Of a stretch of DNA of 64,000 nucleotides, positions 12,446 to 48,623 are shown in pieces. A model generated the notes under the pieces. It was not told the DNA's origin and made no database searches. It saw only the letters and a program-made list of their open reading frames with translations. The stretch is from positions 30,729 to 94,728 of the IMG/VR virus record IMGVR_UViG_3300017917_000405. One strand, 5' to 3'. Both the position numbers and the translations under genes were made by a program. The number at the start of each line of letters is the position of its first letter. The first letter of the stretch is position 1. Source of the stretch: a virus.

Positions 12446-12894
12446 ACCTCTTCATCCAATACAAGAGATTGAATATCTTGTCTTTTAAGTATTGTTTCGT
12501 ATCCAAGAACAGTTCCATCAAAGTCTACTAGTGGTGTAGATCCATTGACCTCAAAAATGGTTGCTCCAGCAATCCCAGCAGAAGTATTTTCTTCTTTCCA
12601 TACAAGTATGCTGCTTGAGTTTCTAATATTTGATACGCGATATGTTGATGGAATTGGATCTGATGACCTTAGTTTAACTTCTTCTTTAGTAAGAATAATT
12701 GATTGATTTGATGATACTTCTGTTGAGTTTGTCCCACTAGACTTTGTTACATATCCTTTTGCAAGACAGTCGATAGTATCTACCACAGACCACTTCTTCT
12801 CTATCTCACCATTTTTCATATTATTTACAGTAGAAGTAACATCGTATAAATCTGCTTTCATTGAATACATCGAAGATGTTGTACATCTAAACAT
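12442..12894 (-). CDS. Putative head closure (stopper) protein
   Basis: 150 aa, beta-rich, in the head-tail joining position. Confidence 0.5.
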   Translation of the reverse strand: MFRCTTSSMYSMKADLYDVTSTVNNMKNGEIEKKWSVVDTIDCLAKGYVTKSSGTNSTEVSSNQSIILTKEEVKLRSSDPIPSTYRVSNIRNSSSILVWKEENTSAGIAGATIFEVNGSTPLVDFDGTVLGYETILKRQDIQSLVLDEEV

Positions 12895-13787
12895 TAGATT
12901 GCCCTAAAGTTAAACTTCTTATATTGAGCAAGCAATGAATCAACGAAGATGTTTCCACTACCAAGACTAATTGAGTCTGCAAACGATAGGCTGAATGCAT
13001 CATTTGAAATAGACTTAATACCCTTTGAGCGATACCCAAAGTCTTGACAAAGAAATTGTTCTACTAGAAGTACGGTTGCAAGATATACGTTATGCGGAAC
13101 AAATTTTTCTCCAAATTCTCCATAAAACATATATCTTGAACCCTTTTTAAATATTGGAGATGATCCAATTACCGTAGTCTCTGCCCATTCTAGAATATCT
13201 TCACCTTCATTAGCAAAGCGCAATTGATATCCACTTGGAGAGATTGCTAAAACCCTGTCCCAATAGTTTAGAGTTGGATCTGCGGTAGTGTCATATAGAA
13301 GTTCATCGTTCTGATAAATTTTTGATACTGATACTACTTTATCGTTTAGATTAATTGCATCAGATCCTTGACCAAATGACTCAGACTTTGTATTCTTAAA
13401 AGCAAATGATGCAATATTACTGTCTATCCATGATCTTGCCATTCTTTCTAAATCTATAATTTTTGCATCTGGGTATTCAGTTGAGTCTAGTGATAGTTCT
13501 GATCTGATCTGAGAAGCAGTTGCGTATGGCCTTACAATGGCAATCTCATAGTTTGTAGATGCTCCTCCATTATAAGAAACAGAAAGAATTGCATGTCTGT
13601 CATATGCCGCCTGAGCCTTTGTAAGAACAATATTAAACGTTGTTCCAGATACTAGCGTTCCGTTTCCACTAGCAAATTGAGATCCTGTGTCAATATCCGT
13701 GAGAGTATACGCAAGCGTTGTTGTTCCAGATGGAGCAATTATGGATATTGTTAGTGTAGAGTCATACTCTCTTAGATATTCTTTCAT
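12894..13787 (-). CDS. Head-tail adaptor/connector protein
   Basis: PYAT...VPHNVYLATVLLV...FVDSLLAQY pattern of gp6/gp15-like adaptors; synteny. Confidence 0.65.
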   Translation of the reverse strand: MKEYLREYDSTLTISIIAPSGTTTLAYTLTDIDTGSQFASGNGTLVSGTTFNIVLTKAQAAYDRHAILSVSYNGGASTNYEIAIVRPYATASQIRSELSLDSTEYPDAKIIDLERMARSWIDSNIASFAFKNTKSESFGQGSDAINLNDKVVSVSKIYQNDELLYDTTADPTLNYWDRVLAISPSGYQLRFANEGEDILEWAETTVIGSSPIFKKGSRYMFYGEFGEKFVPHNVYLATVLLVEQFLCQDFGYRSKGIKSISNDAFSLSFADSISLGSGNIFVDSLLAQYKKFNFRAI

Positions 13788-16791: not shown

Positions 16792-18345
16792 TTACGCTTG
16801 CTGTCTACCGTCACCTTGTGTTGCGCGACCAGTTTCATTAACATCTGGAGCATTTGATTGACGCTGTTGGTCTCTTAAACGATTTCCATTTGCTTGCGTT
16901 CTTTGCTCTGCTGCTCCTTGTGCTGTAAGTTGAACTGGTTCATCGCCGCCTGGAATACTAGACATACCCATTCTTGTTCTTACTTCATTTGGAACAACAA
17001 CCTTCATTCTTAAGTAAATTTCATCAATCTTACTTTGAGTTGCTTCATCTGTAAGAGTTAATTCATTAAACTCAAGTCTGAATACGTTTGTTTTTTCTGC
17101 AACAATACGATTAATTTTCTTTTCTAATGTATCTTGTGCAGGTCTTGTAACCTGTTCCTTGAATGTTCTGTCTGCTTCACGAGCAGCGGCTAGACCAACA
17201 TTTTCTGTCATTCCAACCTTTGACCCTGGAACGCGGTGTGACATAAGAACTTCTCTATCATTTGCCTTTCTATAGTTTTCAAATGATGAGTCTTGAACCT
17301 TTGTTTCAATTGGCTCCATCTTAACTTCAACTTTATTATTTCCATCATCTGGTGGAAGTGGAACAATAACAGTTCTATGTGATTGACCACGGAGATTGTT
17401 TGAGAAGAATTCAAAAAGTTTTTCTTCTGATTGTGGAGAAATCTTTGCTCCCTTAATCCAAAGAATGTATCTTGGAACAGCCTTATTCTCAAAGTATTCA
17501 AGATTGAACCTTGACGCAAACTCTGTTCCAGCCATTGCATTCTTTGCTGCAACAATTGCTGGTACACCATAATATGTGCTTGTTGGGCTATAGGTCTTTA
17601 GATGAATAATCTCATTTGGCCTTGGGTCATTTCCTATTGGGTTTCCTGTAGATTCGTCCTGATAGTTTTTGAAGAATACTGCTTTGCCATTAACAATTTG
17701 TACAAAGCCGTCGCGCAAACGTCGCACGCGGATTGTTGCTGCAGGTATATGACCGATATAGCCAATTTCTCCAGTTGTTTTACGTCCAATTTCAATGTAC
17801 CCATTTCCAGTTGATTCCTGATCAATTAGTGCCTTTGTTAGAACAGCAACGAATGTCTCTTCATCGTTTCTTGATTCTAGCCACTCAATTGTCTGATTCT
17901 TCATTCTTGCAAGTTTTCTACGAGCGCGAGCAACTTGATCTGGATCTGTCATCTCTTCAAGTGTTTGAATAACATCTAGTGTTGGTTTAAGATCGTATCC
18001 AAGCCCAACAATATTTGCGACCTTTGCATTAATTGCAGAATAGTTTGGAGATGAAATTTCATAAATCTTTGCGAGGGCAGCAAGATTATATGGAGGTTCG
18101 ATAACATCAAAAATTCCATAGCCCATCTTCTCTGGCTGAATTTGTTTTGATGAACTTCCGTCGCCTGACTGCTCGTTATTATCAGCCTTTTCAAGTTTTC
18201 TTTTTGCGGATCGCTTAAAGTTGGTGCTTAGACCAGCAAACTTTAGCAGGTCTTCGCTTTCTAATTTAAAATCATCTTTATCTCCAAAGTTAACCCCAGT
18301 ATTTGAAGTTGCCTTTGATATTTTAACGCCCTCAATTTCTTGCAT
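16792..18345 (-). CDS. Portal protein
   Basis: TGNGYIEI...HIPAATIR...NEIIHLK...YYGVP...FENKAVP...NEVR motifs. Likely start MQEIEG at 18345. Confidence 0.92.
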   Translation of the reverse strand: MQEIEGVKISKATSNTGVNFGDKDDFKLESEDLLKFAGLSTNFKRSAKRKLEKADNNEQSGDGSSSKQIQPEKMGYGIFDVIEPPYNLAALAKIYEISSPNYSAINAKVANIVGLGYDLKPTLDVIQTLEEMTDPDQVARARRKLARMKNQTIEWLESRNDEETFVAVLTKALIDQESTGNGYIEIGRKTTGEIGYIGHIPAATIRVRRLRDGFVQIVNGKAVFFKNYQDESTGNPIGNDPRPNEIIHLKTYSPTSTYYGVPAIVAAKNAMAGTEFASRFNLEYFENKAVPRYILWIKGAKISPQSEEKLFEFFSNNLRGQSHRTVIVPLPPDDGNNKVEVKMEPIETKVQDSSFENYRKANDREVLMSHRVPGSKVGMTENVGLAAAREADRTFKEQVTRPAQDTLEKKINRIVAEKTNVFRLEFNELTLTDEATQSKIDEIYLRMKVVVPNEVRTRMGMSSIPGGDEPVQLTAQGAAEQRTQANGNRLRDQQRQSNAPDVNETGRATQGDGRQQA

Positions 18346-27670: not shown

Positions 27671-27891
27671 TTCAAATTGAGAAAAATGTTAATAATATTT
27701 TATTTTGTATGATGTTGATATTTGTGTCCAAAATGTCCGTTTTGAGTAGTGCGCCCATAAATGTTCCTTACGACCCCTATGTCCGTTTTGTGAGTTTTGT
27801 CATGGCGAATGGAATGCAGGCCCGTAGAATGGCGAAAGGACGGGAGGGTAGTTTCCTACCCCGCCGCCCTCTCGTGCCGCCTAGCGTCCCG

Positions 27892-28317
27892 CTAGATATC
27901 CTCGCCGCAGGTGTGGCAGTAGATCGCTGCCACTTGCTGGTCCCCGTTGTGATCTTCCTCCATGATCGCGCTGGTGAAATGATCTAGGTGTAGTGCCTTC
28001 CGTAGCCCGCGTGCCCATTCTGCGAACTCCATACCCTTGCGCTGCGCGTCGTGGGTCCATGCACCGTGGCAGGTGGCGCATAGCACCTGGCACTTAGACA
28101 GTTCCGCAAGCAGAGTGCGCGTGGAGTATCGGCGCACCATGTTCGCAGGGTGAACTACCTCGCCAGAGGCGTTGCGGTATTTGTTCGATGGATCTAGGTG
28201 GTCGAGCACTAGGCCCGCCGCGCTCGTGCGATATCCGCAGACTGTGCAACCGTGGGACAGTTTGTGCGCGTCAACTATGGCGCGATTGCGCTCCTGTGCC
28301 TGTCGTGAGATAGCCAT
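27892..28317 (-). CDS. HNH endonuclease
   Basis: CTVCG...LDHLDP...KCQVLCATCH. Likely start MAISRQ at 28317 (TGATG coupling). Confidence 0.8.
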   Translation of the reverse strand: MAISRQAQERNRAIVDAHKLSHGCTVCGYRTSAAGLVLDHLDPSNKYRNASGEVVHPANMVRRYSTRTLLAELSKCQVLCATCHGAWTHDAQRKGMEFAEWARGLRKALHLDHFTSAIMEEDHNGDQQVAAIYCHTCGEDI

Positions 28318-28469
28318 CACGCACACTCCTCGCACCCGTAGGCCTGCAGGCAGTATTGGCACGCGCTGGCCTCGCAAGCCTCGCATGAGGCAAGCGGCGT
28401 CACGTTGTCGCACATATCGCAGGCGAACAGGTCGAAGTCCGAAAGGGAAAGGTGTTCTAGTTCTTGCAT
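28317..28469 (-). CDS. 50-aa protein with four CxxC pairs (not in ORF track)
   Basis: MQELEHLSLSDFDLFACDMCDNVTPLASCEACEASACQYCLQAYGCEECA; GGAGG RBS. Confidence 0.65.
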   Translation of the reverse strand: MQELEHLSLSDFDLFACDMCDNVTPLASCEACEASACQYCLQAYGCEECA

Positions 28470-28728
28470 GACTGCCTCCAAGCGTTGTGAGGGGCAACGT
28501 CACAGACTGCACAACGCCGTCCCTCCTCCATAAAAATGATGTTGTGACTAGCGGCGTTAGCCTCTCGCACACTCGGCTCCATCGCGTTGACCGCGTGGCC
28601 TAGTTCGACCATCGTGTCCATTGTCCTTGCCTTTCGTGAGGTGTTTGTTCCCATGCCTTGATCCAAGCACCTTTCGATCATGTTGTCACGCCCAAACGGG
28701 AGCTTTTTTATCTTTTTTTTCAGAATGT

Positions 28729-28772
28729 TTATCCACAACCTTATCCACAGATTGTGCATAACCTGTGGAAAA
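28729..28772. promoter_or_regulatory. Cluster of four DnaA boxes
   Basis: TTATCCACA at 28729 and 28741; inverted TGTGCATAA at 28753 and TGTGGAAAA at 28764. Confidence 0.75.
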
Positions 28773-28785
28773 CCTGCAGTATCCC

Positions 28786-28884
28786 AAATGTCCGATTTGT
28801 CCATTGTGTCCGATTTGTCTCAAATGTCCGTTTTGCCCTAGTTTGTCCTAGAATGTCCGAATTGCCCTAGATTGTCCGATTTTG
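28786..28884. repeat. Iteron-like 9-10 bp tandem repeats (consensus WWWTGTCCG)
   Basis: About ten degenerate units, e.g. aaatgtccg-atttgtcca-ttgtgtccg-atttgtctc-aaatgtccg. Dispersed copies near 27733, 27780, 29764, 30871 (inverted) and 30992. Confidence 0.8.
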
Positions 28885-29059
28885 TTGTTTTTGTAACCTA
28901 TTTACGAAAAGCCCGAAATATCACGAAAGTTCCTGGTGCTTTTGATCTAATTACGATAGGGGAAAATATCACGGAAAGTTTATCGTTTTGTTATCAAATA
29001 GGCTTGACTTTCATGGTTATGTATGGTTAGATATTAGTAATACAAAGAAAGGTAAGGAA

Positions 29060-30837
29060 ATGCCAAAGGAATTCAAGATCGCCATCGTTCCCGCCGTTGC
29101 ATTGTTCGCGCTTTGCACCTACATCTGTATGTCAGCCCTGCGTGCTATCTTTGCTTTCTAGGAGGAAATCATGATGCACATCTACTACTTAGGCCGCTAC
29201 AAGAACAGCGAGCAAGACTACGACCGCGCTAGTGCGTGGGTAGCCAATGAGGTTGCGTCTAGTGGCGCGTCCTTTGCAGACTTTGAGATTGTGGAGGCAT
29301 AATGAAACTCACTCATCGTGGCGAGGTTGCGATTGTCCTTGCTTTCATCGCTGGTTTTGCCTTTCTCTGTCATGTCTTTGGCGAGGGGGGATTCTAAATG
29401 ATGTACCATATCGTTCACCCATTAGCACATGGCGTTAGTGTCATCACTAAGAAAGAAGTGCCCATTGCTATGGCTACCGCAGATACTTGCGAGATTGCAT
29501 TCTTTGACCAAGATGGTGAATGGGTTACTGATATCGTTTCAGAGTTTGTAGAGTATGCAGATAGCGTAGAAGGTGGCACGCTTGTCTATGGCTATGTGCC
29601 AAATGAAGATGTCGAAAACTTTTTAGAAAAATATTCGTAATAGACTTGACAAACCCATTGATTTGGGTCCGGCCCCGAAATGTCCTATTTACGAAGTATG
29701 TACTTTTTCACAGAAAATATAACAGGTTTATAACAATATTGTTTATCATTTCGTTATAAATCAATGTCCGTTTTGTCATATCTACTCGTCAGTAAATGTC
29801 AGACCCCTCTGATAGTTTGTTTCTAGTAGAAAGGATTCACTTATGTTCATGTACATCATCTCCCTTGATTGTTCCCCCTGGAATGTCCCCGTCGTCTGCG
29901 ATGAAATGTCAGACCCCTCGGATAGACTTCACCCATCAATGATGAATCACATTGTCGATATCGAAACGATTGGATTGGTAGCATGAGTACCCCCACCCTT
30001 CACCTTGCTGTCTGCCCGCGCTGTGCAGAAAACTTCCTCTCAACCTTTGAGGCAATCGACGATTGGGAAGATGTTTGCGAGAAGTGCTACGAGGACTTCC
30101 TGCTTGACCTCTACCCCGACCTTGACTGGCAAGCCGAATACCACCACCTTTAGGAGAAACATGACTTACACATTCACTACCCCATTCCTCCGCATTGATT
30201 GGCAGGAGGGTTCTCATACTGCTAACGTCACCACCGTTCGTGGAGATATGGACGTTTTCACGTTCGCATGGCACAAAGACTATCCCGATGTTGTGGACTT
30301 CACCGAAGCCCTTGCATCATGGGTCAACTACTCGCTCACCGTGGAGGACGCTAATGTCTAACTATCTTGACTACCTTCCCGAAGATGGCAACTTCACCGA
30401 AGATGAACTTTGGGACGCGATTGCAGAATCATTAGACGTTGATCCAGATGAGATCAGCGATGGAGATTTGGTGGACTACCTGTGAGCGATTACTTTATCT
30501 ATCACCCAGGATCAGGAACAATGATCGCATTGTCAGATACTGTCTATGTCATTGACGCAACCTCTTTGACTGAACTAGAACTAGATGAATCAGAGGCAGG
30601 AGTGTTAGATATCTATCGCGTGATGGATATTGGTGTTCGCCTTGATAATGAATATTGGGACGAAGTACAAGATGCAATGGAGGCAATGTAATGAAAACTA
30701 ATAGAGAACTCAATCCAACAGAGTTTGAGATTGCATTCCAACTAAAGAATGCGTTAAACGAGTTGAGAAACTATCAAGATATTCCCGCTGCTATTGAGCA
30801 TATCGAATCAGCACTTACAAATCTGTATGAGTGGTGA
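29060..30837 (+). CDS. Run of tiny, mostly acidic early-type ORFs (e.g. 29060-29161, 29171-29302, 29398-29640, ~30161-30361, ~30354-30485, 30482-30691, ~30691-30837)
   Basis: Strong RBSs, coupled start/stop codons, D/E-rich; functions not recognisable. Confidence 0.6.
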
Positions 30838-31072
30838 CTTGACAAACTGAGATCTCGGGGCCGGACGGAACAAATCGGACATTTACGACAACCTAAAAAA
30901 GTCACGGAAATGTAACAATTTTTATTTTTATCGGCGTGTCAACTTGACAGACATATCGGACATATCTCCGTTATCAAACCGTAATAAAACCTGTCCGTTT
31001 TGTATGTTTTTAGAATTAGGTAATGTCAGACCCCTAGTGTAGAGTGAGGGTACTAGTTAGAAAGGCTACAAA

Positions 31073-31342
31073 ATGATTCACGGTATTTACACTCCAATTT
31101 CAATGACTGCCGCCGATATTATTGGCGAGGAAACTATCATGGGAAGTGGCGGTGCGCCTGTCGTTATCCGTCGCGTGTCTAATGATTCTAAGACTGTCAC
31201 TTTCATGGACGTGTACCGTGGAAAATTGTTCCGATTCCGCAAAGATCAAGCGGTCACAGTCCTTATCCGAGAGGACGAAAATGACCCTATCGTGCAAGCG
31301 GAATTGGCTTGTGCATTAGCAGATAAGGGGGTACAATTCTAA
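31073..31342 (+). CDS. Hypothetical protein
   Basis: AGAAAGG RBS downstream of the promoter at 31024. Confidence 0.65.
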   Translation: MIHGIYTPISMTAADIIGEETIMGSGGAPVVIRRVSNDSKTVTFMDVYRGKLFRFRKDQAVTVLIREDENDPIVQAELACALADKGVQF

Positions 31343-31343
31343 T

Positions 31344-31481
31344 ATGATAAAGAATCGTAAGCGTACCCGTGAGGAAATTACCCGCGTGCAGGAATTGCGT
31401 CGTAGTAATGCTGCCATGCCTCACAAGAACAAGTCACGTTACACCCGCAAGGTGAAGCATAAGGGGCAAGCGTATGCTTGA
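31344..31481 (+). CDS. Small basic peptide (45 aa)
   Basis: MIKNRKRTREEITRVQELRRSNAAMPHKNKSRYTRKVKHKGQAYA. Confidence 0.6.
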   Translation: MIKNRKRTREEITRVQELRRSNAAMPHKNKSRYTRKVKHKGQAYA

Positions 31482-31550
31482 GTTTATTCTAATCCTCGCC
31501 TGCTCTATTATCGGTGCTATCATTCTCGCCCTAGAACTCTAAGGAATAAA

Positions 31551-31655
31551 ATGAAAATTGATCTAGACTATGACGCGCAATGCTATTGCGTAGATTGCTG
31601 CCCCGAAGGGTGTTGCCCTTGTGAGGACTGTAATGAGCCTTGCGACTGTCCATAA
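31551..31655 (+). CDS. 34-aa Cys-rich metallothionein-like peptide
   Basis: MKIDLDYDAQCYCVDCCPEGCCPCEDCNEPCDCP; AAGGA RBS. Confidence 0.55.
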   Translation: MKIDLDYDAQCYCVDCCPEGCCPCEDCNEPCDCP

Positions 31656-31760
31656 CCTAATTCCATTCTATTGCGAACCCTGCCAGGAAATAGAGTTTTT
31701 CTGTGATACCTGCGGGGAAAACCTAATCGACTTGTCAGACCCCCATGCTAAGGTGAACCC

Positions 31761-32312
31761 ATGATTAAAGAAATTATCGCTGCCAATACTGTCACCCTCT
31801 ACACGGAACGCTTTCGCTTCCTCGCCCTTCAAGCCACTATGTCACAGATTGAGTCTGCTGCAACGTGGTACTATGACGCGCAGGAGGTTGCGGAGGACGT
31901 TGCGGAAAACTTAGGCGTATCGCTTGAGATCGGTGCTTCCATCGTTGCCGCATTCTCACCTCGTGAGCGTTGGGCAAGCAATGTTGCTAAGGCTCTCGCA
32001 TTCTCATTAGGCAAGCCCGTTGCAGGATTGCAGAATAACTACCGTATGGCAGAACGTTCGATGGAATTGGGCTTTGACGCGCTCAACGGACTAAAGACTA
32101 ATGCGTTCGCTCGTGCTATTGCAGGCGATAATGACGCGGTAGTTATTGACGTATGGATGTGCCGCGCTGCTGCTATTGGCACAGATTCACCTAACAAAAC
32201 ACAGTACAACGATCTGTCGCAAGCGGTTCGCAATGTTGCGGAAGAAATGGGAGTAACACCGCGCACCATGCAAGCACTAATTTGGATTATCATTAGAGGG
32301 AGTGCAAACTAA
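31761..32312 (+). CDS. Helix-hairpin-helix DNA glycosylase-like protein
   Basis: AAFSPRERW...GLKTNAF...VVIDVWMCRAA...MQALIW. Leaderless from the promoter at 31733. Confidence 0.55.
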   Translation: MIKEIIAANTVTLYTERFRFLALQATMSQIESAATWYYDAQEVAEDVAENLGVSLEIGASIVAAFSPRERWASNVAKALAFSLGKPVAGLQNNYRMAERSMELGFDALNGLKTNAFARAIAGDNDAVVIDVWMCRAAAIGTDSPNKTQYNDLSQAVRNVAEEMGVTPRTMQALIWIIIRGSAN

Positions 32313-32855
32313 TGCCTAAAGTAAAATTGCCCAGGGGAGAATGGGAAAGTATTCTCGTCACGTTAGAACTCGCACAACAACATAATATCGTTGCTTATTT
32401 AGATCCACTTATCAAAGAAATAGAAGATCAAGTCTACGCGCAGGAGTACTAAAAATGCTAGATGATATCGCCGTCATGTTCATCACCGTGTTCGGTGTAA
32501 TTATTTTATTTTTTTGGATTGCATCGCTAATTTTTTAGTGCGTTGCACTTGACAAATGCGATAAGCGGGGCCGGATCGGTTGTTACCTAACTGTTACGAA
32601 ACTAACTTGATTTTCACAGAAATTTTTGCTAGGCTTTAGCCATCAACCACTAGGAGGACTCATGGACCCGATTTTCGAATTCTCAGACGGCTTTGACGCT
32701 GTTGGCTGGTACACGGAGCAGTTGTCCAAGCGCGACCACGACGACTATGGCTGGGACTACATAGAAGAATACCCCTACTAGAAAGGGGCCGGACTTTTCT
32801 AAACCTCTTTTACGATAGTGCTTGACTTTCACAGGAATTATGGTAAGTTTGACTT

Positions 32856-33080
32856 ATGAGCGAATCTACTGAAACCATCGAAACCGCATATCAACTCAAT
32901 GCAAATGATAGGTGTGATAAGTGTCAAGCACAAGCATATTTCTGGGTGAATGGAGTAGCAGGGGATCTTCTTTTCTGCCGCCATCATTTCTTGGAAAATG
33001 AAGAAAAAATTCGTGCTTATGCCTTTGAAATTGTAGATGAATCTGATAAGATCAACGAAAGGTCTGAATCAAGTGCTTAG
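32856..33080 (+). CDS. Small zinc-binding protein
   Basis: DRCDKCQAQA...LLFCRHH. Confidence 0.65.
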   Translation: MSESTETIETAYQLNANDRCDKCQAQAYFWVNGVAGDLLFCRHHFLENEEKIRAYAFEIVDESDKINERSESSA

Positions 33081-33196
33081 GTCAAAGAAGAACGTTGGCA
33101 AGAACCACATGCGCTGCCCCTACGGTTGCTGCACAGGAATGAGCAAGAAGCAGGAAAAGCGTATCATCAAGCGCAAGGAAACGAGGGAGTGGAAGA

Positions 33197-33684
33197 ATGA
33201 CAACTGATTCATGTCACCCAATGTCATTGGAAGTAGGAGATCAAGTCCTAATAAATGGAGAGACATTTACTCTCATTGAGGTAGATGATGAGGTTGATCA
33301 TGGATACCGCCTCGTTTTGTCAGACCGCTATGATATGATCAAGTCGTTGATCTTAGGTGATGACCAATATGTAACCCTGGTAGTGGAGGCAGAATAATGT
33401 TCGATGATCTTCATATTCGTACTATCACAAAGGGTGAAGACACCTACATTCACGCCCTTGACTTTGCACAGCACCTTATCTATGTAGCAATGGATTTGCA
33501 GAATACCCTTCCTCCAACAGATGATAAAGATGTGAAGATGATGGACTATGCTGCTTTTGCTACCCTCCGCATGGTTGCCCAACTTATTCTTAGGGGAGAA
33601 GATGTGGAATACATGAGAAACAATCTTGAAACATATGAGGACTTTTTAGCCCTCGCAGATATTGACAATCCAGAAGATCTCTGA
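33197..33684 (+). CDS. Two hypothetical proteins (33197-33397, 33397-33684)
   Basis: Coupled ORFs with RBSs. Confidence 0.6.
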
Positions 33685-33717
33685 TAGACTCTCAACACCC
33701 TAAGGAAAGGAAACATC

Positions 33718-34227
33718 ATGGGGTTGGATATGTATCTCTATGCTCGTAAGTACATCAGCAAGTTTGACTACTCAACTACCTATGAGGATAGGAAGCCTAC
33801 TGAGGAGTTCAACAGTATTCTTTCATATGCCCCCGCAGGTATTGACAAGTATGGCGACTTTGGCGGTGCTTCTGTCAATATTACTGTCGCATACTGGCGC
33901 AAGGCCAATGCTATTCACCAATGGTTCGTAGACAATATCCAAGAAGGTATTGACGACTGCCGTGAGGCATATGTTACCCGTGAGCGACTGGTGGAGTTGC
34001 GAGATCTCGTTGCACAAGTTTGCCAGGTACTGCCTAATGGTGCTCGTGATGAACTCTATGCAGAGGAAGTCCTGCCACCACAAGAAGGATTCTTCTTTGG
34101 CTCATATGAGATTGACGACTGGTATTGGTCAGATCTTGACCATACCTTGGAAATACTCAACCACGTTCTTGCTATTATTCCTGAGGACGATTGGACTTGG
34201 AACTTCTACTACCAATCCTCTTGGTAA
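33718..34227 (+). CDS. Conserved phage hypothetical protein
   Basis: MGLDMYL...AYWRKANAIHQWFV...GFFFGS...YYQSSW, a widespread phage family. Confidence 0.75.
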   Translation: MGLDMYLYARKYISKFDYSTTYEDRKPTEEFNSILSYAPAGIDKYGDFGGASVNITVAYWRKANAIHQWFVDNIQEGIDDCREAYVTRERLVELRDLVAQVCQVLPNGARDELYAEEVLPPQEGFFFGSYEIDDWYWSDLDHTLEILNHVLAIIPEDDWTWNFYYQSSW

Positions 34228-34313
34228 CAGTTTCATAACGGTGGGGGTATATGACTTGACTCTGTGCCCCCACCCATGATAAGATCAAACCACAAACAAC
34301 GAAAGGAAATAAT

Positions 34314-34445
34314 ATGCCAGTCATCGGTTCAGAGTTCACTTCTCAGAAGTCCAAGCACACGGGTATCGTGGCAGAGGTCATTGAGAACAAGAATGGTTCC
34401 TACCGTGTTCGTTTTGAGGACGGACGTTGGACTACTGTTTCGTAG
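34314..34445 (+). CDS. Small SH3-like beta protein (43 aa)
   Basis: MPVIGSEFTSQKSKHTGIVAEVIENKNGSYRVRFEDGRWTTVS; GAAAGGA RBS. Confidence 0.6.
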   Translation: MPVIGSEFTSQKSKHTGIVAEVIENKNGSYRVRFEDGRWTTVS

Positions 34446-34476
34446 TCTGCTAAAATAAATAAAAAAATAGTGGCTT

Positions 34477-34685
34477 GGAATGGGTTGTAGTATAAGGCAG
34501 GAAGTACAGGATTTATCCAAGTGTGAGGTTCAAATCCCACCTACTCGTTCCCCGTGGTTCCTGGAAGGTATCTGTACAAATATCGAAGACTGTCGCCACG
34601 GTATCAAAGGGCAAAAGCGCAATAGGAATAATGCCCTCTCTAATCTGGGAGGGGCTGGCACGTCTTTACTGTCAGCCCTTTCCTC
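34477..34685 (+). ncRNA. Candidate structured RNA: anticodon-less tRNA-like domain followed by three hairpins
   Basis: Closing stem 34477-34487/34541-34551; D-like arm; T-arm GTGAG-TTCAAAT-CCCAC; anticodon arm reduced to GGAT-TT-ATCC. Confidence 0.5.
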
Positions 34686-34813
34686 ACGTCCGGCCCTTTT
34701 TACCCCTACTTTACGATAGATCAAAAAATCACAGGAATTTTTACCAAAATCTATTGACATTTGTCAGACCTAGGCTGTATTCTTGTCTTACAAATCAACG
34801 AAAGGAAATAAAT

Positions 34814-35809
34814 ATGTCGCACATGCTCGAAACCTATGGTGATATGGCTACCTTTGCCTCCCTCCGCGAACCCGCGTGGCATGGCCTGGGAACTGTCTTT
34901 GACCAAGAGGTGACGACGAGCGAAATGCTGTCGCTTGCACACCTTGATGGTTGGAACGTTCGCTTGGAAGATATCAACCTTCCTGGTCGTTCACATCGTG
35001 ATTACTTTGCGGTTGTTCGCACTAACCCGTTTGATGGTGGTGTGGATTCGCTTGGTGTTGTAGGCGAGCGTTACAAGGTTCTCCAGAACGAAGAACTGTT
35101 CCAGTTTGGTGACAACATTGGTGACGGTGCTCGCTGGGAGACTGCTGGTTCTATCAAGAATGGAACTGTTGTCTTTGGCTCCCTCGCCATTGACCGTGAA
35201 AGTGTTATTGACGCGAAGGGCGTGAATGACGTTATCCGTTCTTATCTTCTGGTTCATACCTCGCATGATGGTTCGCTTGCAATCCAGGCTTCCATCACTC
35301 CCGTTCGCGTTGTGTGCCAGAACACGCTGAACATGGCAGTTGGTCCTCGTGGCAAGGGTGCAAAGCAATCATTCCGTATCCGTCACACTCAGACTGTGCA
35401 GGGTAAGGTGCAGGCAGCGCGTGAGGCTCTTGGTCTTGCTCACACCTACCTTGATTCATTCGATGAAATGGCAAAGACTCTGTTTGAGCAAAAGGTAACT
35501 GATGAGAAGTTCTTTGATATCATCACGACTGCATACCCCAAGCCTGAGAAGGACGCAAAGGGTGCATTCACCAAGTGGGATAATAAGGTGCAGACCATCT
35601 CTGATATCTACAACTCTGATACCTGCGTTGGAATCCGTGGTACTGCATGGGGAACGCTGAACGCGATGACTGAGCGCATTGACTGGTTCCGCAATCCTCG
35701 TGGCGGTAATGCTGAAAGCGTTCTTGCTGCTGCTAGTGGCTTTGACGCTGCTACCAATGCAGAGAAGAATCGCCTTACCTCCATTGTGAAGGAACTGGCG
35801 TTCGCATAA
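34814..35809 (+). CDS. DUF932 family (phage/plasmid TIGR03299-like) protein
   Basis: REPAWHGLG...YKVLQNEE...WETAGSI...SHDGS...TPVRVVCQNTL...RHT...GTAWG. True start 34814 after GAAAGGA. Confidence 0.88.
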   Translation: MSHMLETYGDMATFASLREPAWHGLGTVFDQEVTTSEMLSLAHLDGWNVRLEDINLPGRSHRDYFAVVRTNPFDGGVDSLGVVGERYKVLQNEELFQFGDNIGDGARWETAGSIKNGTVVFGSLAIDRESVIDAKGVNDVIRSYLLVHTSHDGSLAIQASITPVRVVCQNTLNMAVGPRGKGAKQSFRIRHTQTVQGKVQAAREALGLAHTYLDSFDEMAKTLFEQKVTDEKFFDIITTAYPKPEKDAKGAFTKWDNKVQTISDIYNSDTCVGIRGTAWGTLNAMTERIDWFRNPRGGNAESVLAAASGFDAATNAEKNRLTSIVKELAFA

Positions 35810-35998
35810 TCAAACTATCCTGGGCATGATATAAAACTGCCTAGCCCTAGGGCTTGACAAATCAAAACTTTCGGGGCCGGACGGTCGGCCCAAACCTTTT
35901 ACGAATCTTTACGATATTTCACAGAAATCACAGAAAATCCTTGACAAGTGTCAGACCCTTCATGTAAGATATGGCTATAACAAACCCTAAGGAGAGAA

Positions 35999-36448
35999 AT
36001 GGATTCCTACACCCGTACCGCGCTTGATAACGCAGCACAAGCAATTGCAGACAAGTATCTTTCATCTGATGCCTATGATGAAGAGGTTTTGCGTAGCCGT
36101 TTACAAGACCTTGAGGCAGAAGCAGGATCATTGCGTAAGTTGCTCAATGAGGCCAATGCAAAACTTGACACCCTATCTGGTTGGGTTATGGAAGCAGCAG
36201 ATCAGGAGTATCTTTCTACTGATACCTTGCAGGAATTGGCAGACATTCTTGAGATTGACCTCCGCAAACTTGTGACTAAGACGTTCCAGGCTACCATCGA
36301 AATTTCATACTATCAGGTGCTTGGCAGGGAAGAGCCATCGTTTGAGGAATTTGACCTTGAGATTCGTGATGGCTACTGTGACAGCATTGACGAAGTAGAA
36401 GATTGGACTGTCATTACTAGTCATGAAGTAAATGATTCCCGATACTAA
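35999..36448 (+). CDS. Acidic coiled-coil hypothetical protein
   Basis: AAGGAG RBS downstream of the promoter at 35941-35970. Confidence 0.7.
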   Translation: MDSYTRTALDNAAQAIADKYLSSDAYDEEVLRSRLQDLEAEAGSLRKLLNEANAKLDTLSGWVMEAADQEYLSTDTLQELADILEIDLRKLVTKTFQATIEISYYQVLGREEPSFEEFDLEIRDGYCDSIDEVEDWTVITSHEVNDSRY

Positions 36449-36807
36449 TTGTTATCTTTTGTCTGTCCCGCCCTTGACTTCTAAGGGTGGGCAGACTAAG
36501 ATATGGTGTGTAACCCACAAGAAATGGAGTTGTAATGACTAAAGACGAAATGCTTGCTGAGTTTAGTGTTCATTCTTTTATTGCCCCGCAGGTTATCGTT
36601 ACCCGTAAGGCAGATGGTGTGATGGGTACACTTGACTTTACCCATGAACCTCGTATATACTCAAACTTCCAACCACTCTAAGGAGATACTAATGCACAAT
36701 GATCCGAGGGTAGAAGAATGGGCAAACTTTCTGGAATCTGCCCCATGGACAAACATGGAAGAACTCGCTACAATAATTGTTGCTGAACTTGATTCTTTGG
36801 AGGACTA

Positions 36808-37038
36808 ATGCAGTACCACTATGTTGTAATGTATGACACAGAATTTGATGAGTGGCGTGTAGATATGGACGCTACTGAGTATCTAGATGGAAACATCTTT
36901 GATCCTGATGCCGCGATTGGTAAAGGCTGGTCTTGGGCAGAGGAAGGTAGCCCCGAGGATTTGCTTGACGGAACCCTTATTCGACTGCTACAATCTGTCA
37001 TGGGAAGCATTCCTACCCCTCCCCGAATTGAGGCATGA
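36808..37038 (+). CDS. Hypothetical protein
   Basis: 76 aa acidic ORF with GGAGG RBS. Confidence 0.6.
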   Translation: MQYHYVVMYDTEFDEWRVDMDATEYLDGNIFDPDAAIGKGWSWAEEGSPEDLLDGTLIRLLQSVMGSIPTPPRIEA

Positions 37039-37079
37039 TGGTTTGACTTATGATATAATTATGTCGAAAGGACGTAACT

Positions 37080-37505
37080 ATGGATAAAAGTCAAACACAC
37101 AGATTTTGGGATCGTGTAAATAAAACTGAGGATTGTTGGCTATGGACGGGTAGCAAAACATCCGCTGGATATGGAAATGTCTATCTTGGATCAAATGAGA
37201 ATGGTAAATGGATTAGAATGTATGCTCATAGATATTCATTTGAGTTAGAGAATGGATATCTTCCAGATGTTGTAATGCATATGTGTGATAATCCTATTTG
37301 TGTCAGACCATCTCACCTTGCACCAGGAAACTGGGATACCAATAACAAAGATATGGTTTCCAAAGGTAGACACGGACACCAAAAACGTATAGAATGTAAA
37401 AATGGTCACCTCTACATAGATGGGAGTTATTACTTATATGGACGACGAAGATTGTGCAAGCAATGTATCACAGACAGAAAACGACGAACAACTAACCCTT
37501 CTTGA
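37080..37505 (+). CDS. HNH homing endonuclease
   Basis: CWLWTG...YAHRYSF...VMHMCDNPICVRPSHL...N and C-terminal CKNGH...CKQC. Confidence 0.9.
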   Translation: MDKSQTHRFWDRVNKTEDCWLWTGSKTSAGYGNVYLGSNENGKWIRMYAHRYSFELENGYLPDVVMHMCDNPICVRPSHLAPGNWDTNNKDMVSKGRHGHQKRIECKNGHLYIDGSYYLYGRRRLCKQCITDRKRRTTNPS

Positions 37506-37534
37506 CTACTCCGAATCGAAATGGCGGTACTACA

Positions 37535-38607
37535 ATGACTAAGTATCTTATCTCATGGACCGAGGAAATCTGGCAGAATGTTGTCATTGACGCAGACTCT
37601 GAGCAGGAAGCAATGGATAAGTTCTGGAGTGTGAACTTTGATACTGAATCTGTCAAAATTTTTGGTGGCGAGGTTCAGGAAGGCGTAGACGTTGAGGAGG
37701 TAGCAGATGACTACTGCAACACAAACTAATTCATATCAGGTAACATTTGTATTTGAGTATGCCACCATCTCTACTTATGTCTTTGCAATGCATGAGGACG
37801 CTGCTCCAGATCTTGCTGCGCTTTTTATTGCAGATGAACTGGGAATTGGTGTAGAATTGCTAGACCAAGCACAAGACATTTCTGTCGAACTAATAGATGA
37901 GGACGTACTGTGACCGTGCTAACCGCATATGAGATTGAGTCTGGGCATGGAGATTCCTACTGGGAGATCTATGATAACGACTACCCTCACAACCCTCCCG
38001 TGACCACGGTAGAGGGAGAAGATTTCGGTGATTATGTTGCCGAACTATTGACAAAGGAATATGTAGATGATATTCTTGTCAATACATATGAGTCCTGGCT
38101 AGACGAGCAAGGGCTTATGGATCATAACGAATATCTGTAATTATCTAGATAAAGGAGAAAGATATGGCAAGCAAGAGCAAGCGCACCTACTCATACTTGG
38201 AGTCGTGGGACACGCGATTTGGCAAGTCCGAGCGAGTGGTGATTCGTGATGAGAATGGTAAGTTTGTAGATAATGTCTCACTTACCGCACTAAAGAAGGC
38301 TCCTACCATCAAGCGGTAGTTCCTTAGGGTAGAGAGGGGGGCAGGCTTGACACCTGTCCCCCTTTCGTGTATGATCGGAGGCATGATGAACGAAGAACAG
38401 ATTGGCAAGAAGTTATGCGATATGTTTTCAGACGAACGTATCAGCCCTATTGGTATTGCACACTACACCTTTGAGCATATGGGGCTTGGTGCTGAAATGC
38501 GAGTGCGTGAATGGCTTGATGAACATGACACGTTTTGCAGGGTAGCAGCAGGTGACGCTTCCTCCATACAACTAGAGTTTGACTTTGATGATATCCCACC
38601 TTTCTGA
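37535..38607 (+). CDS. Run of small hypothetical ORFs (~37535-37729, 37707-37913, 37910-38140, 38164-38319, ~38383-38607)
   Basis: Coupled short, mostly acidic ORFs with RBSs. Confidence 0.6.
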
Positions 38608-39780
38608 TATCGTTTAAATAACAATGATGCCCCAGGACTTGCGCTCTGCAAGTTTCTGGGGCCGGACATAATCCTATAAAACATATTACGAACGACCTAA
38701 AAATATCACAGGAATTTTGGTATCGGTCACATTGCCTAAAATAGTATTACGAACGCATCAAAAAAATCACAGAAAGTTTTGTTATATTGTGTTATATATA
38801 GATATATATGTCAACGGCGGGTGAATGTTGATCCCCCTTACCTATAGAATATACATTACGAACAAAAGAAAAATATCATGGAAATCCCCCATTTTTTATC
38901 AAAATCTATATAGTTTCATGCATTTTGGGGCAATTTTAGGGCGTTTTCTGGCATATTTCTATAGGTTTTTCCTATGGGAAATTAGATAACGATATGATAA
39001 CGCTTTCACAATTACACAATATAACACAAAAAATAAGATGTATAGAATTCATATAATACTATCTTAGGGTTTATTCATAGGTTTTTCCTATATCAAGACG
39101 GTATAGGATATGTTTTATGTCAGAACATATGATGTTATTATTGTCTATACTTTCTTATATCTATAGGGGATATCTTTCTATAGGGAGTAATGTTCTTATC
39201 TGCTAACCCGCCGCCGAATTCTTCCTCTTCATCATCTTCAAATAACCATTCCCATGGATCTAATGGTTCACCCGTGTTCCAGTCATATGTGATAAAGAAG
39301 TCCATTGTTCCTCCTGCGATTTGGGAGAATTCCCTACTCCTAGTATATATTGCGAACGCTATTAATTGCGTCCAGAATTGCCAGATATGCGACCGTATTT
39401 CCTTGCCCCTTTTGGGCATGGGCGAGCCAGTCTAGTTCGCTCAAAACGCGCTCCCTATACATATTGGTAGTATTTTCTAACTCCATATTACAGTTCCAGC
39501 ACTTAGTCATTTTGCTTCCCATCTCACAAAGGCATACGGTAGTGGCTCATAAAGAATGTAGTTCTTTACTGAGATAACCTCAACTCCTGTGTGATTATAT
39601 TTTTGATCAATCATTCTTATCACCGCTTTTCCCATGTCACAGCACCACAATTACAATCCCAATCACCATTACAGCAAGGACAAAAAGCATTGCAGTCCTT
39701 TAAATGATTCTTCCATATGCTTTTGGTCCAACCACTTGCATAGGTAAATGTTTCTTTTGGTTTCTTATTCTTTACGAAAC

Positions 39781-47448: not shown

Positions 47449-48153
47449 TCAGCCTGTTAAATGCTTGCCGAAGACGCTATCTACATATCGGCCCTTCTGC
47501 AACTTAATCAAATCTCCTACTGTTCGCATCTCAGCCATCTTCAATGAGATAAGACTATTAAGTTGGTTTATGATCAACAGTAGTGCGGCTACTGAAAACC
47601 ACTCAAACCATGACTCGTTTCCTGTAATTAGCAAGAATGCTGCATAAATAAAAATAAACATAATTAACAATGCAATAATGATTGCAAAGATTGCTTTAAA
47701 TACCTTCATACTATTCCTCTGATTCGTAAGTAATACCAAGTTCATCAATTGTAATGAACCCATCGTTTTCTATAATTTCTTCATGAATAATTCCATCAAC
47801 CTCATATTTGACTGTTGAGTAGAATGCACCGTACTTGATAATTTCTCCAAGACAGTTCTCTTCAATGAGCCATACTGGGTGATGACGATACAAGGTCATC
47901 TCGTACCTCTAGGTGGATCGCCAACAGCACCATCAAAATAACAACGCTCTCCAAATGCCTCAATTATGTTTCTTAGTTTTTGTAGATACTCCATGATGAC
48001 AACACGCCTTTCATCTGAGAAAGACATAATTTGATTTTCATACACACGAATACCAATATACCCATTCATCTCTACGAAATCAACTACCAGACCGTGGTAC
48101 GGTGGAGGCATCTTATGAACTGCCTCTGACATTTGCTTAGTAAACTTAGCCAT
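47449..48153 (-). CDS. Three small proteins (2-TM protein ~47449-47709; 47711-47899; 47896-48153)
   Basis: Coupled ORFs; the first has two hydrophobic helices and lies near the endolysin. Confidence 0.55.
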
Positions 48154-48421
48154 TGATATTTTCTAGCACCTGCTTCCATATCTCTTGTGACTTATGAGAG
48201 TTTCTAGAGTTATCTGGTTTACCATCTACCAAGAATACTCCACCCCATACGCCCCAAGAATCTGTTTCTGCTCCGTAGTCAAAGCATTCCTTTGCTACTG
48301 GGCAGTCCAAACAAATATTATCTATTGCGGTTGCCATGCCAGCATCATATTCGTACTTTTCAAAGAAGGTATCCGTATCCATGCCAAGACATTCTGCATC
48401 TTTATACCAGTCGTTCAGCAT
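48146..48421 (-). CDS. whiB: WhiB-family transcription factor
   Basis: W...AEC...FF...CLDCPVAKEC...WGVWGG. Confidence 0.92.
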   Translation of the reverse strand: MLNDWYKDAECLGMDTDTFFEKYEYDAGMATAIDNICLDCPVAKECFDYGAETDSWGVWGGVFLVDGKPDNSRNSHKSQEIWKQVLENING

Positions 48422-48623
48422 ATTTGTTTGGCACACTCCATCCGATACCGTTTGGCTCGTACCTCTTTGCTATACCCCACCTACCATTACGAAACATTCC
48501 ATTCTTCTTATAGAATGCTTCATCATTTGGGGTCCAGTCAATAATGGTCCAGCCTTCCCAAAATAGATTCTTGCGTGACGTTACGAGTCGATGTGCTGAA
48601 TCGTAATCAATAGTTATACTCAT
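48402..48623 (-). CDS. Hypothetical protein
   Basis: Trp-rich 73 aa ORF upstream of whiB. Confidence 0.6.
   Translation of the reverse strand: MSITIDYDSAHRLVTSRKNLFWEGWTIIDWTPNDEAFYKKNGMFRNGRWGIAKRYEPNGIGWSVPNKYAERLV

Follow-up and report, generated by a model that had tools for sequence, protein, structure and literature searches.

Seven putative promoters (P1 to P7) were analysed on one strand of a viral DNA, IMG/VR virus record IMGVR_UViG_3300017917_000405. The window, i.e. the whole stretch of 64,000 nucleotides analysed, corresponds to bases 30729-94728 of this 94,728-bp record, and positions refer to the window unless stated otherwise. All seven sites share the pattern TGTCAG-N10-TANNNT. 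With moderate confidence, they are taken as promoters which would be read by host RNA polymerase with the sigma factor SigA once this has been adapted by the host activator PafBC ('sigma adaptation'), and the small phage genes behind them would probably be plugged into the host DNA-damage switch. The motif, its geometry, its restriction to one block, its conservation in related phages and the occurrence of the same box in a host-type damage regulon were established directly.

Motif and geometry of the seven sites

A first-pass annotation had listed seven plus-strand copies of the motif with a spacer of 10 nt, each upstream of a gene. All copies were confirmed in the sequence, a gene start lies downstream of every one of them, and the motif was enriched over shuffled controls: TGTCAG-N10-TANNNT was matched 9 times in the window vs 0.77 ± 0.89 times in 100 dinucleotide shuffles (largest value 4). 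The whole 94.7-kb record contained 8 forward matches and 1 reverse match; the pattern read backwards, which served as a control, gave 0 matches in the whole record. The shared core is longer than TGTCAG. The sequence TGTCAGACC is present in 7 of 7 sites, giving the site form TGTCAGACC(CC)-N-TANNNT, and ACCCC follows TGTCAG in 4 of 7, giving TGTCAGACCCC. The block and its promoters are:

28900-38650, plus strand: block of about 35 small genes, holding all box promoters
29797-29818, plus strand: P1, TGTCAGACCCC with -10 TAGTTT, without -35; serves a 47-aa gene, 29843-29986
29907-29928, plus strand: P2, TGTCAGACCCC with -10 TAGACT; serves 29983-30153 and the genes after it
31024-31045, plus strand: P3, TGTCAGACCCC with -10 TAGAGT, without -35; serves gene 31073-31342
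31733-31754, plus strand: P4, TGTCAGACCCC with -10 TAAGGT, embedded in open reading frame (ORF) 31621-31764; serves 31761-32312
33318-33339, plus strand: P5, TGTCAGACCGC with -10 TATGAT, embedded in ORF 33197-33397 in frame L-S-D-R
34754-34783, plus strand: P6, TTGACA, 2 nt, TGTCAGACC and -10 TATTCT; serves the DUF932 gene, 34814-35809
35941-35970, plus strand: P7, TTGACA, 2 nt, TGTCAGACCC and -10 TAAGAT; serves gene 35999-36448

The gaps between the end of the -10 hexamer and the gene start are 24, 54, 27, 6, 57, 30 and 28 nt for P1 to P7, with 10 nt as the alternative for P2 when a 15-codon ORF is taken. P5, whose next gene (33397-33684) follows after 57 nt, is the least typical of the seven. 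At P4, the mRNA is predicted to be leaderless because TAAGGT ends 6 nt ahead of the ATG of the downstream gene, which stands exactly at the predicted +1; leaderless mRNA is a common form in actinobacteria. The predicted +1 of P1 is the A at 29825. Over all sites, the base 7 nt past the -10 is A in 6 of 7 and G in 1 of 7.

Weak -10 hexamers are used in this phage (TAGTTT, TAGACT, TAGAGT, TAAGGT), and a TG at the extended -10 position was found at only 3 of 7 sites. The TTGACA elements reported for P6 and P7 are present at 34754 and 35941, 18 nt before the -10, and both are predicted hybrid promoters (box plus -35). At the remaining five sites, the -35 position has at most 2 of 6 matches to TTGACA. 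LexA boxes occurred in the phage at chance level only, with none near the box promoters. An alternative sigma factor was rejected as an explanation: a box 10 nt from the -10 is too near for a -35 element and the -10 is of the housekeeping type.

Three sites had been described as embedded in the preceding ORF in the frame M/L-S-D-P/R, which is correct by sequence; P2, for instance, lies in the 3' part of gene 29843-29986 in frame M-S-D-P. The shared frame was rejected as meaningful because the stops TAG or TAA in the -10 hexamers forbid one frame of three. Apart from the seven sites, the following matches were found:

29130-29151, plus strand: candidate eighth promoter, TGTCAGCCC with -10 TATCTT, inside the small ORF 29060-29161
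48110-48131, minus strand: lone minus-strand match, TGTCAGAGGCAG with -10 TAAGAT, within the first codons of gene 47896-48153

The site at 29130, which is in the same frame as the embedded sites (M-S-A), may be an eighth promoter, weaker than the seven. An ATG at 29171 lies 19 nt past its -10, and this short gap leaves doubt; the CCC variant it carries is present in relatives (9 family sites). The minus-strand match at 48131, in the gene directly after whiB, is doubtful and probably non-functional. A further TGTCAGACC at 37301 was rejected as a promoter because no -10 accompanies it; it is located within an HNH gene.

The block belongs to a plus-strand island at 24.9-39 kb, and the 80 kb flanking the block are transcribed from the opposite strand. 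For genes on the minus strand, the promoters are of the TATAAT or extended -10 kind and lack the box. Within the block, SigA-type promoters of the form TTGACN-N16-18-TANNNT (32607, 32822, 33662, 34256, 38347 and others) and other repeated intergenic elements are found besides the boxes.

The box in related phages and in host-type genomes

Using the DUF932 protein, 35 related loci of up to 13 kb each were retrieved from IMG/VR. The motif scan of relatives, which the first-pass annotation had suggested, gave arrays in 33 of the 35 loci and in eight near-complete genomes. In the loci, 3-16 boxes each stand on the gene strand, the exception being L013, where genes are divergent. In the eight near-complete relatives (100-115 kb), all boxes fall within a single block of ~10 kb and on the same strand, with 8-16 copies vs 0-2 for the reversed pattern.

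The logo of 242 unique family sites reads AAW-TGTC(A/G)G-(T/A)-S-S-C, followed by an extended -10 TG and TA(t)AAT, and the spacing of 10 nt between box and -10 is common to all 242. The extended -10 has its G in 83% of family sites. An A peak stands exactly 7 nt past the -10 and precedes an A-rich leader with a purine-rich ribosome-binding stretch. The start codon of the first ORF is found 6-7 nt past the -10 in 23 of 250 family sites and ~25-35 nt past it in most others; the ATG gap of P3 (27 nt) is within this mode of 25-35 nt.

Single arrangements recur as well. A P1-like promoter with the same MF.Y-type small gene is present in L011 and L012, and the module of box, small gene and box formed by P1 and P2 is repeated in L011 (585/781 and 975/1181) and L012 (1811/2007). 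The box, -10 and 6-nt ATG gap of P4 recur at L011:1515 and L012:2470, before a different gene. In most relatives, a box stands ~50 nt before the DUF932 gene, usually as TAGACA-a-TGTCAGTGCC and in L013 as TTGACA-tt-TGTCAGACCCC. Gene 33718-34227 has a plain SigA-type promoter in this phage (TTGACA-17-TAGACT, 33662-33690, plus strand) and TTGACA-aa-TGTCAG hybrids stand before the orthologues in L011 and L012; thus, orthologous promoters gain and lose boxes. Judged from sequence, the features of the window and of the relatives are hard to explain otherwise than as those of working promoters.

Two classes of box were distinguished by the bases after TGTCRG. Class T-G comprises 123 sites, one third of them TGTCGG, and class x-CC comprises 98 sites, of which 94 (96%) are TGTCAG; the classes are otherwise alike in their features. 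Some phages carry T-G boxes throughout, others x-CC boxes throughout, and the rest lie between these extremes. In this phage and in L011-L013, its nearest relatives, every box is x-CC and the -10s are weak, of the TAGnnT type. With seven promoters, two of them -35 hybrids, the present genome represents the ACC-only version.

The host type was approached through two genes. The virus encodes a WhiB protein:

48146-48436, minus strand: whiB, 96 aa; Whib PF02467, E 1.9e-12

The match exceeds the curated cut-off, and among the control genomes Corynebacterium alone matched. The large terminase protein (TerL) has 61% identity to TerL of Streptomyces phages. From WhiB and this TerL identity it follows that the phage is an actinophage, though one of low GC content. 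It belongs to the phages of low-GC freshwater actinobacteria and is uncultured. With 39% GC, it is not a mycobacteriophage, and M. smegmatis, around which the first-pass annotation had framed its proposal, is only a surrogate. A Megablast search of window 29000-37000 against cultured phages gave no match, and a search with the tail-fibre-like protein returned only aquatic phages of mixed hosts, i.e. no host pointer.

The host side was sampled as the bacterial class around one handle; the genomes are of the likely host type. Contig matches to the ribonucleotide reductase served solely as this handle on the class. As host evidence they were rejected, being five phage-like contigs in unrelated metagenome-assembled genomes, MAGs (Patescibacteria, Aquiluna, Bacteroidia and others). 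L047 (CAZKLA010000013.1, 27.8 kb, from an 'Aquiluna' MAG) has 40% GC vs 53% at the pafC locus of that MAG, and its phage-type ribonucleotide reductase is 60% identical to that of this phage. It is probably a misbinned phage contig, or a weak host hint.

An HTH_PafC match was obtained in 193 of 201 genomes of the class; this tally, and no other count, includes five unpublished genomes (G007, G022, G027, G030 and G036). Genomes of 1.3-1.5 Mb, the typical size for freshwater planktonic actinobacteria, had the match in 9 of the 10 used, and the sampled 1.5-Mb genome G075 had none. In ten genomes of 1.3-1.5 Mb, exactly one box with 10-nt spacing is located upstream of recA, followed by an actinobacterial LexA box in 9 of 10. 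Genome G107 carries a pafB-like gene (WYL + WCX) and pafC (HTH_PafC + WYL) in tandem, adjoining tatC and a DEAD/DSHCT helicase gene, an order as in mycobacteria. Host-type boxes also precede carD, a leaderless gene for an RNase_T/DnaQ-like exonuclease and a DUF6504 gene, and several have the same leaderless geometry of 6-7 nt as in the phage. The DUF6504 promoter is orthologous in four host-type genomes (L072-L075) and combines the box with a perfect LexA box, TCGAACATCTGTTCGA, right after the -10. Going by these neighbouring genes, the box is the signature of a regulon for DNA damage in host-type genomes, and the phage copies it without the LexA operators.

A clustering of boxes was also seen on the host side. 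In G107:C1:462000-510000 (L066-L068), 8 or 9 of 13 box matches of this 1.5-Mb genome fall within one 48-kb region, which may be a box-controlled island. The genes downstream, several of them leaderless, include those for a type II C5 methylase and for CAAX-protease-like, TPR and small unknown proteins. Box matches are similarly clustered in other small host-type genomes.

Proposed reading of the box by PafBC and alternative readings

The PafBC motif published from chromatin immunoprecipitation (ChIP-seq) in M. smegmatis is tGTCgg(N10)tA(N3)T, which combines a -26 element with a SigA -10 and has no -35; the helix-turn-helix domain of PafB reads the GTC triplet at -28 to -23 and PafC bridges to domain 4 of SigA (PMC8635444). 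As proposed at first pass, the sites fit this motif, since TGTCAG with its GTC and 10 nt to TANNNT are found in 7 of 7. Activation of PafBC by single-stranded DNA is described in PMC11804915. The first-pass annotation had named either the host sensor or a phage mimic encoded elsewhere as the reader. Neither a WYL domain nor a sigma-70 region 4 was found anywhere in the 94.7-kb record, and five relatives likewise gave no WYL domain. With neither in the record, a host factor is the simpler reader; PafBC in this role, the trigger, the timing and the gene roles are what we infer.

According to this inference, the helix-turn-helix domain of PafB would read the GTC within TGTCAG (around -28 to -23) and PafC would bridge to sigma region 4 in place of a -35 contact. 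Sigma region 2 would read TANNNT and transcription would start 7 nt on, at a purine. PafBC would be switched on by single-stranded DNA in the infected cell, derived from injected or processed phage DNA, from phage replication or from host DNA breakdown, so that the block genes would fire at this time and without LexA control. P6 and P7 could fire without PafBC via TTGACA and could be boosted by PafBC.

The closest known counterparts are the PafBC promoters (RecA-NDp, recA P1-type) of Mycobacterium and Actinobacteria (PMC8635444, PMC11804915), which have the same box, spacing and -10 and leaderless or short-leader transcripts. The phage sites likewise have no -35 in five of seven cases, but P6 and P7 add a full TTGACA. 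Unlike the host promoters, they lie on a phage genome, are clustered as seven within 6 kb before small genes of unknown function, have no LexA box nearby, carry ACC(CC) instead of TG(G), and are preceded mostly by A instead of T. The middle promoters of T4, with a MotA box at -30 and a sigma-70 -10, are -35-less too, and a box near -30 replaces the -35 contact. However, T4 encodes its own activator and co-activator ('sigma appropriation'), whereas in this phage no candidate for either was recognised and the box equals the site of a host activator. The bacterial WYL regulators DriD, CapW and BrxR sense single-stranded DNA and control damage or defence genes (PMC9186387, PMC11662680, PMC9122601), and the same alarm logic would apply here. 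Their circuits belong to the host or to defence islands and have operators of their own, whereas here the phage appears to carry the target sites. A full-text literature search on PafBC with phage and on RecA-NDp found no paper describing such phage promoters. A 2025 paper cited in PMC12848934 concerns a role of PafBC in phage resistance and not phage promoters.

Several findings weigh against PafBC as the reader. All seven sites have ACC after TGTCAG and 4 of 7 have A before the box, whereas ten host-type recA boxes carry TGG (7), AGG (2) or TGC (1), never ACC, and are preceded by T. None of the seven has the usual TGTCRG-TG(G) extension with preceding T. The two box classes may have different readers, and this phage has only the non-canonical class; it is chiefly because a separate reader for the x-CC class is possible that confidence stays at a moderate level. 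Furthermore, an extended -10 (TGn) is present at many promoters of the family, and these could be active with no activator at all. The Streptomyces phage Gilson, a cultured TerL relative, has no array (1 match vs 3 for the reversed control), and since most phage proteins are without known function, an unrecognised phage factor may be conceivable.

Concerning the class difference, the extension after TGTCRG is not part of the published ChIP consensus (PMC8635444). Orthologous DUF932 promoters alternate between TGG/TGC and ACC among phages, and the orthologous host-type DUF6504 promoter has AGC, TCC, CCC or AGG after TGTCAG in four genomes. Because both sets vary at these positions, the same reader, tolerating C, is suggested for both classes. 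Concerning Gilson, which resembles this phage in its related packaging gene and actinobacterial host but has SigA-type promoters and no box array, its lack of the array indicates that the array characterises the freshwater low-GC clade and does not extend to the lineage as a whole.

The strongest alternative, though an unlikely one, is a phage-encoded factor which reads the box and redirects host RNA polymerase, like MotA/AsiA of T4, or as a WhiB adaptor on sigma region 4. The factor would then be made first, from the separate SigA-type promoters inside the block, with the box promoters following as a second temporal class. In favour of such a factor, most small block proteins are without known family, and the ACC variant, the only one in this phage, is rare in host-type genomes. 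A whiB gene was found in this phage and in 8 of 9 relatives checked, the ninth being a 33%-complete fragment. However, the complete relative G308 has two whiB genes and no box array, and in this phage whiB is outside the block, on the opposite strand. Neither a WYL domain nor a sigma-70 region 4 was recognised in the record, and canonical TGG and ACC replace one another at orthologous promoters. A phage factor would also have to imitate the host recA-type box in its sequence as well as in its exact spacing of 10 nt.

It is less likely still that the promoters fire by SigA alone, through the extended -10 or TTGACA, and that the boxes are repressor operators or decoys for PafBC. As decoys, boxes in multiple copies would soak up PafBC during replication and blunt the damage and defence response of the host. 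The common TG of the family (G in 83%) and the full TTGACA at two window sites are in favour of SigA alone. For decoys, the 48-kb region of G107 may be cited: as it holds 8-9 of the 13 box matches of that genome and includes a type II methylase gene and a CAAX-protease-like gene, PafBC titration could pay. In this phage, however, the -10s are weak, TG is found in only 3 of 7 sites and five have no -35, so the sites look activator-dependent. Decoys, in turn, need no fixed distance of 10 nt to a -10, no single strand and no fixed distance to start codons. It is very improbable that a repeated or mobile cassette was merely copied to these sites and has no regulatory role: box, TAAGGT and leaderless ATG do stand before unrelated genes here and in L011/L012, which suggests a movable promoter cassette, but the flanks differ beyond the 22-nt motif, the invariant columns are the functional ones of a known promoter class, and the position relative to start codons is tightly constrained.

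To our knowledge, sigma adaptation by PafBC has been described solely as a DNA-damage circuit of bacteria. If PafBC does read the phage boxes, the single-stranded DNA alarm of the host would double as a phage gene switch. Viral genes would then be timed in a novel manner, with no regulator encoded by the virus itself, and the phage might in this way also interfere with host genes induced by damage. Low-GC freshwater actinobacteria are among the most abundant lake bacteria, and we know of almost no experimental biology for their phages. A more far-reaching scenario, which we regard as doubtful, is that a whole clade of abundant lake actinophages dropped the -35 in one block and uses PafBC as start signal, that the replicating boxes divert PafBC from host damage and island genes bearing the same box, and that the subclade of this phage tunes this competition by an ACC(CC) box of its own.

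Genes behind the boxes and neighbouring elements

None of the genes driven by the putative box promoters has a known function, and most are small block proteins without known family. Labels such as 'early', 'takeover' or 'counter-defence' for the block genes are guesses. Two genes gave Pfam matches:

31761-32312, plus strand: DUF7178 gene, Pfam E 6e-34; predicted to be driven by P4
34814-35809, plus strand: DUF932 gene, Pfam E 1e-51; phrog_1221, function unknown; predicted to be driven by P6

The DUF932 label of the first-pass annotation was confirmed by Pfam, and its label 'HhH-glycosylase-like' (helix-hairpin-helix) obtained fold-level support from the model of the DUF7178 protein, which has a predicted local distance difference test score (pLDDT) of 92. 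In a comparison with M. jannaschii Ogg (VIA-align), 158 residues were aligned with a root-mean-square deviation of 3.6 and Z 11.6, where Z below ~13 can be non-specific for helical proteins and Foldseek E-values were 0.1-0.7. The top structural rows are all Ogg, EndoIII or MutY and span residues 16-181. According to the model, the protein is predicted to have an HhH-GPD glycosylase-like fold; a PDB sequence search with it gave no match. An invariant segment, G-x-K-T-N-A ... I-D-V-W, may resemble the catalytic Lys/Asp pair of EndoIII, with the same spacing of 18 residues.

In the region of the DUF932 promoter, many relatives (L025-L045) carry a perfect CRP-type palindrome, TGTGAGATTACTCACA, ~80-95 nt before the start of the gene; in this phage, the region contains TCACAG half-sites only. 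A tRNA-like element at 34481-34548 (plus strand) separates gene 34314-34445 from P6. It reached 22.6 bits with the Rfam tRNA model, which is below the 29-bit cut-off, and was not called by ARAGORN; it could represent a small RNA or a tRNA that has decayed.

The record carries a terminal repeat of 99 bp, and nearly all of its genes are on the minus strand. Among them are genes for DnaE, primase, DnaB-type helicase, SSB, RecA and RuvC, as well as terminase, portal, capsid and tail genes and five tRNAs. The phage's own RecA is encoded at record positions 12691-13716 (minus strand, Pfam E 3.5e-36) and its own SSB at record positions 17423-18085 (minus strand, phrog_9721); both proteins act on single-stranded DNA, by which PafBC is activated.

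Several further elements were seen in and around the block. About 12 oriented bipartite sites, TTACGA-N12-14-(A/T)TCACRGRAA, are distributed over window 28951-38884 (plus strand). They usually follow an element GGGGCCGGA and stand at operon starts, including positions 30-100 nt upstream of P1, P3, P6 and P7, and in two cases (32607, 32822) the TCACAG half is inside the spacer of a SigA-type promoter. Repeats of TGTCCGWWTTG are present at 27720-28880 (an array beside a high-GC island), 29765, 30871 (inverted) and 30992. Single copies stand ~20-25 nt upstream of the P1 and P3 boxes and have TGTC in common with the PafBC box; the relatives' version upstream of boxes is TCGGACA, TCCGATTTG. The high-GC island itself (~60%, 27890-28700, minus strand) holds a 226-aa ORF for which no Pfam family was found. 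Repeats of the TTGTTATA type and TGTCCG repeats lie on its flanks, and its DNA (27850-28720) gave no match in 301 genomes of the class searched.

Finally, two SigA-type promoters on the plus strand have their -35 inside a G/C-rich hairpin and are predicted terminator-promoter composites. At 34240-34290, TTGACT-18-TAAGAT is combined with the hairpin GGTGGGGG...CCCCCACC, and at 38330-38375, TTGACA-17-TATGAT with the hairpin GGGGGGCAGG...CCTGTCCCCC.

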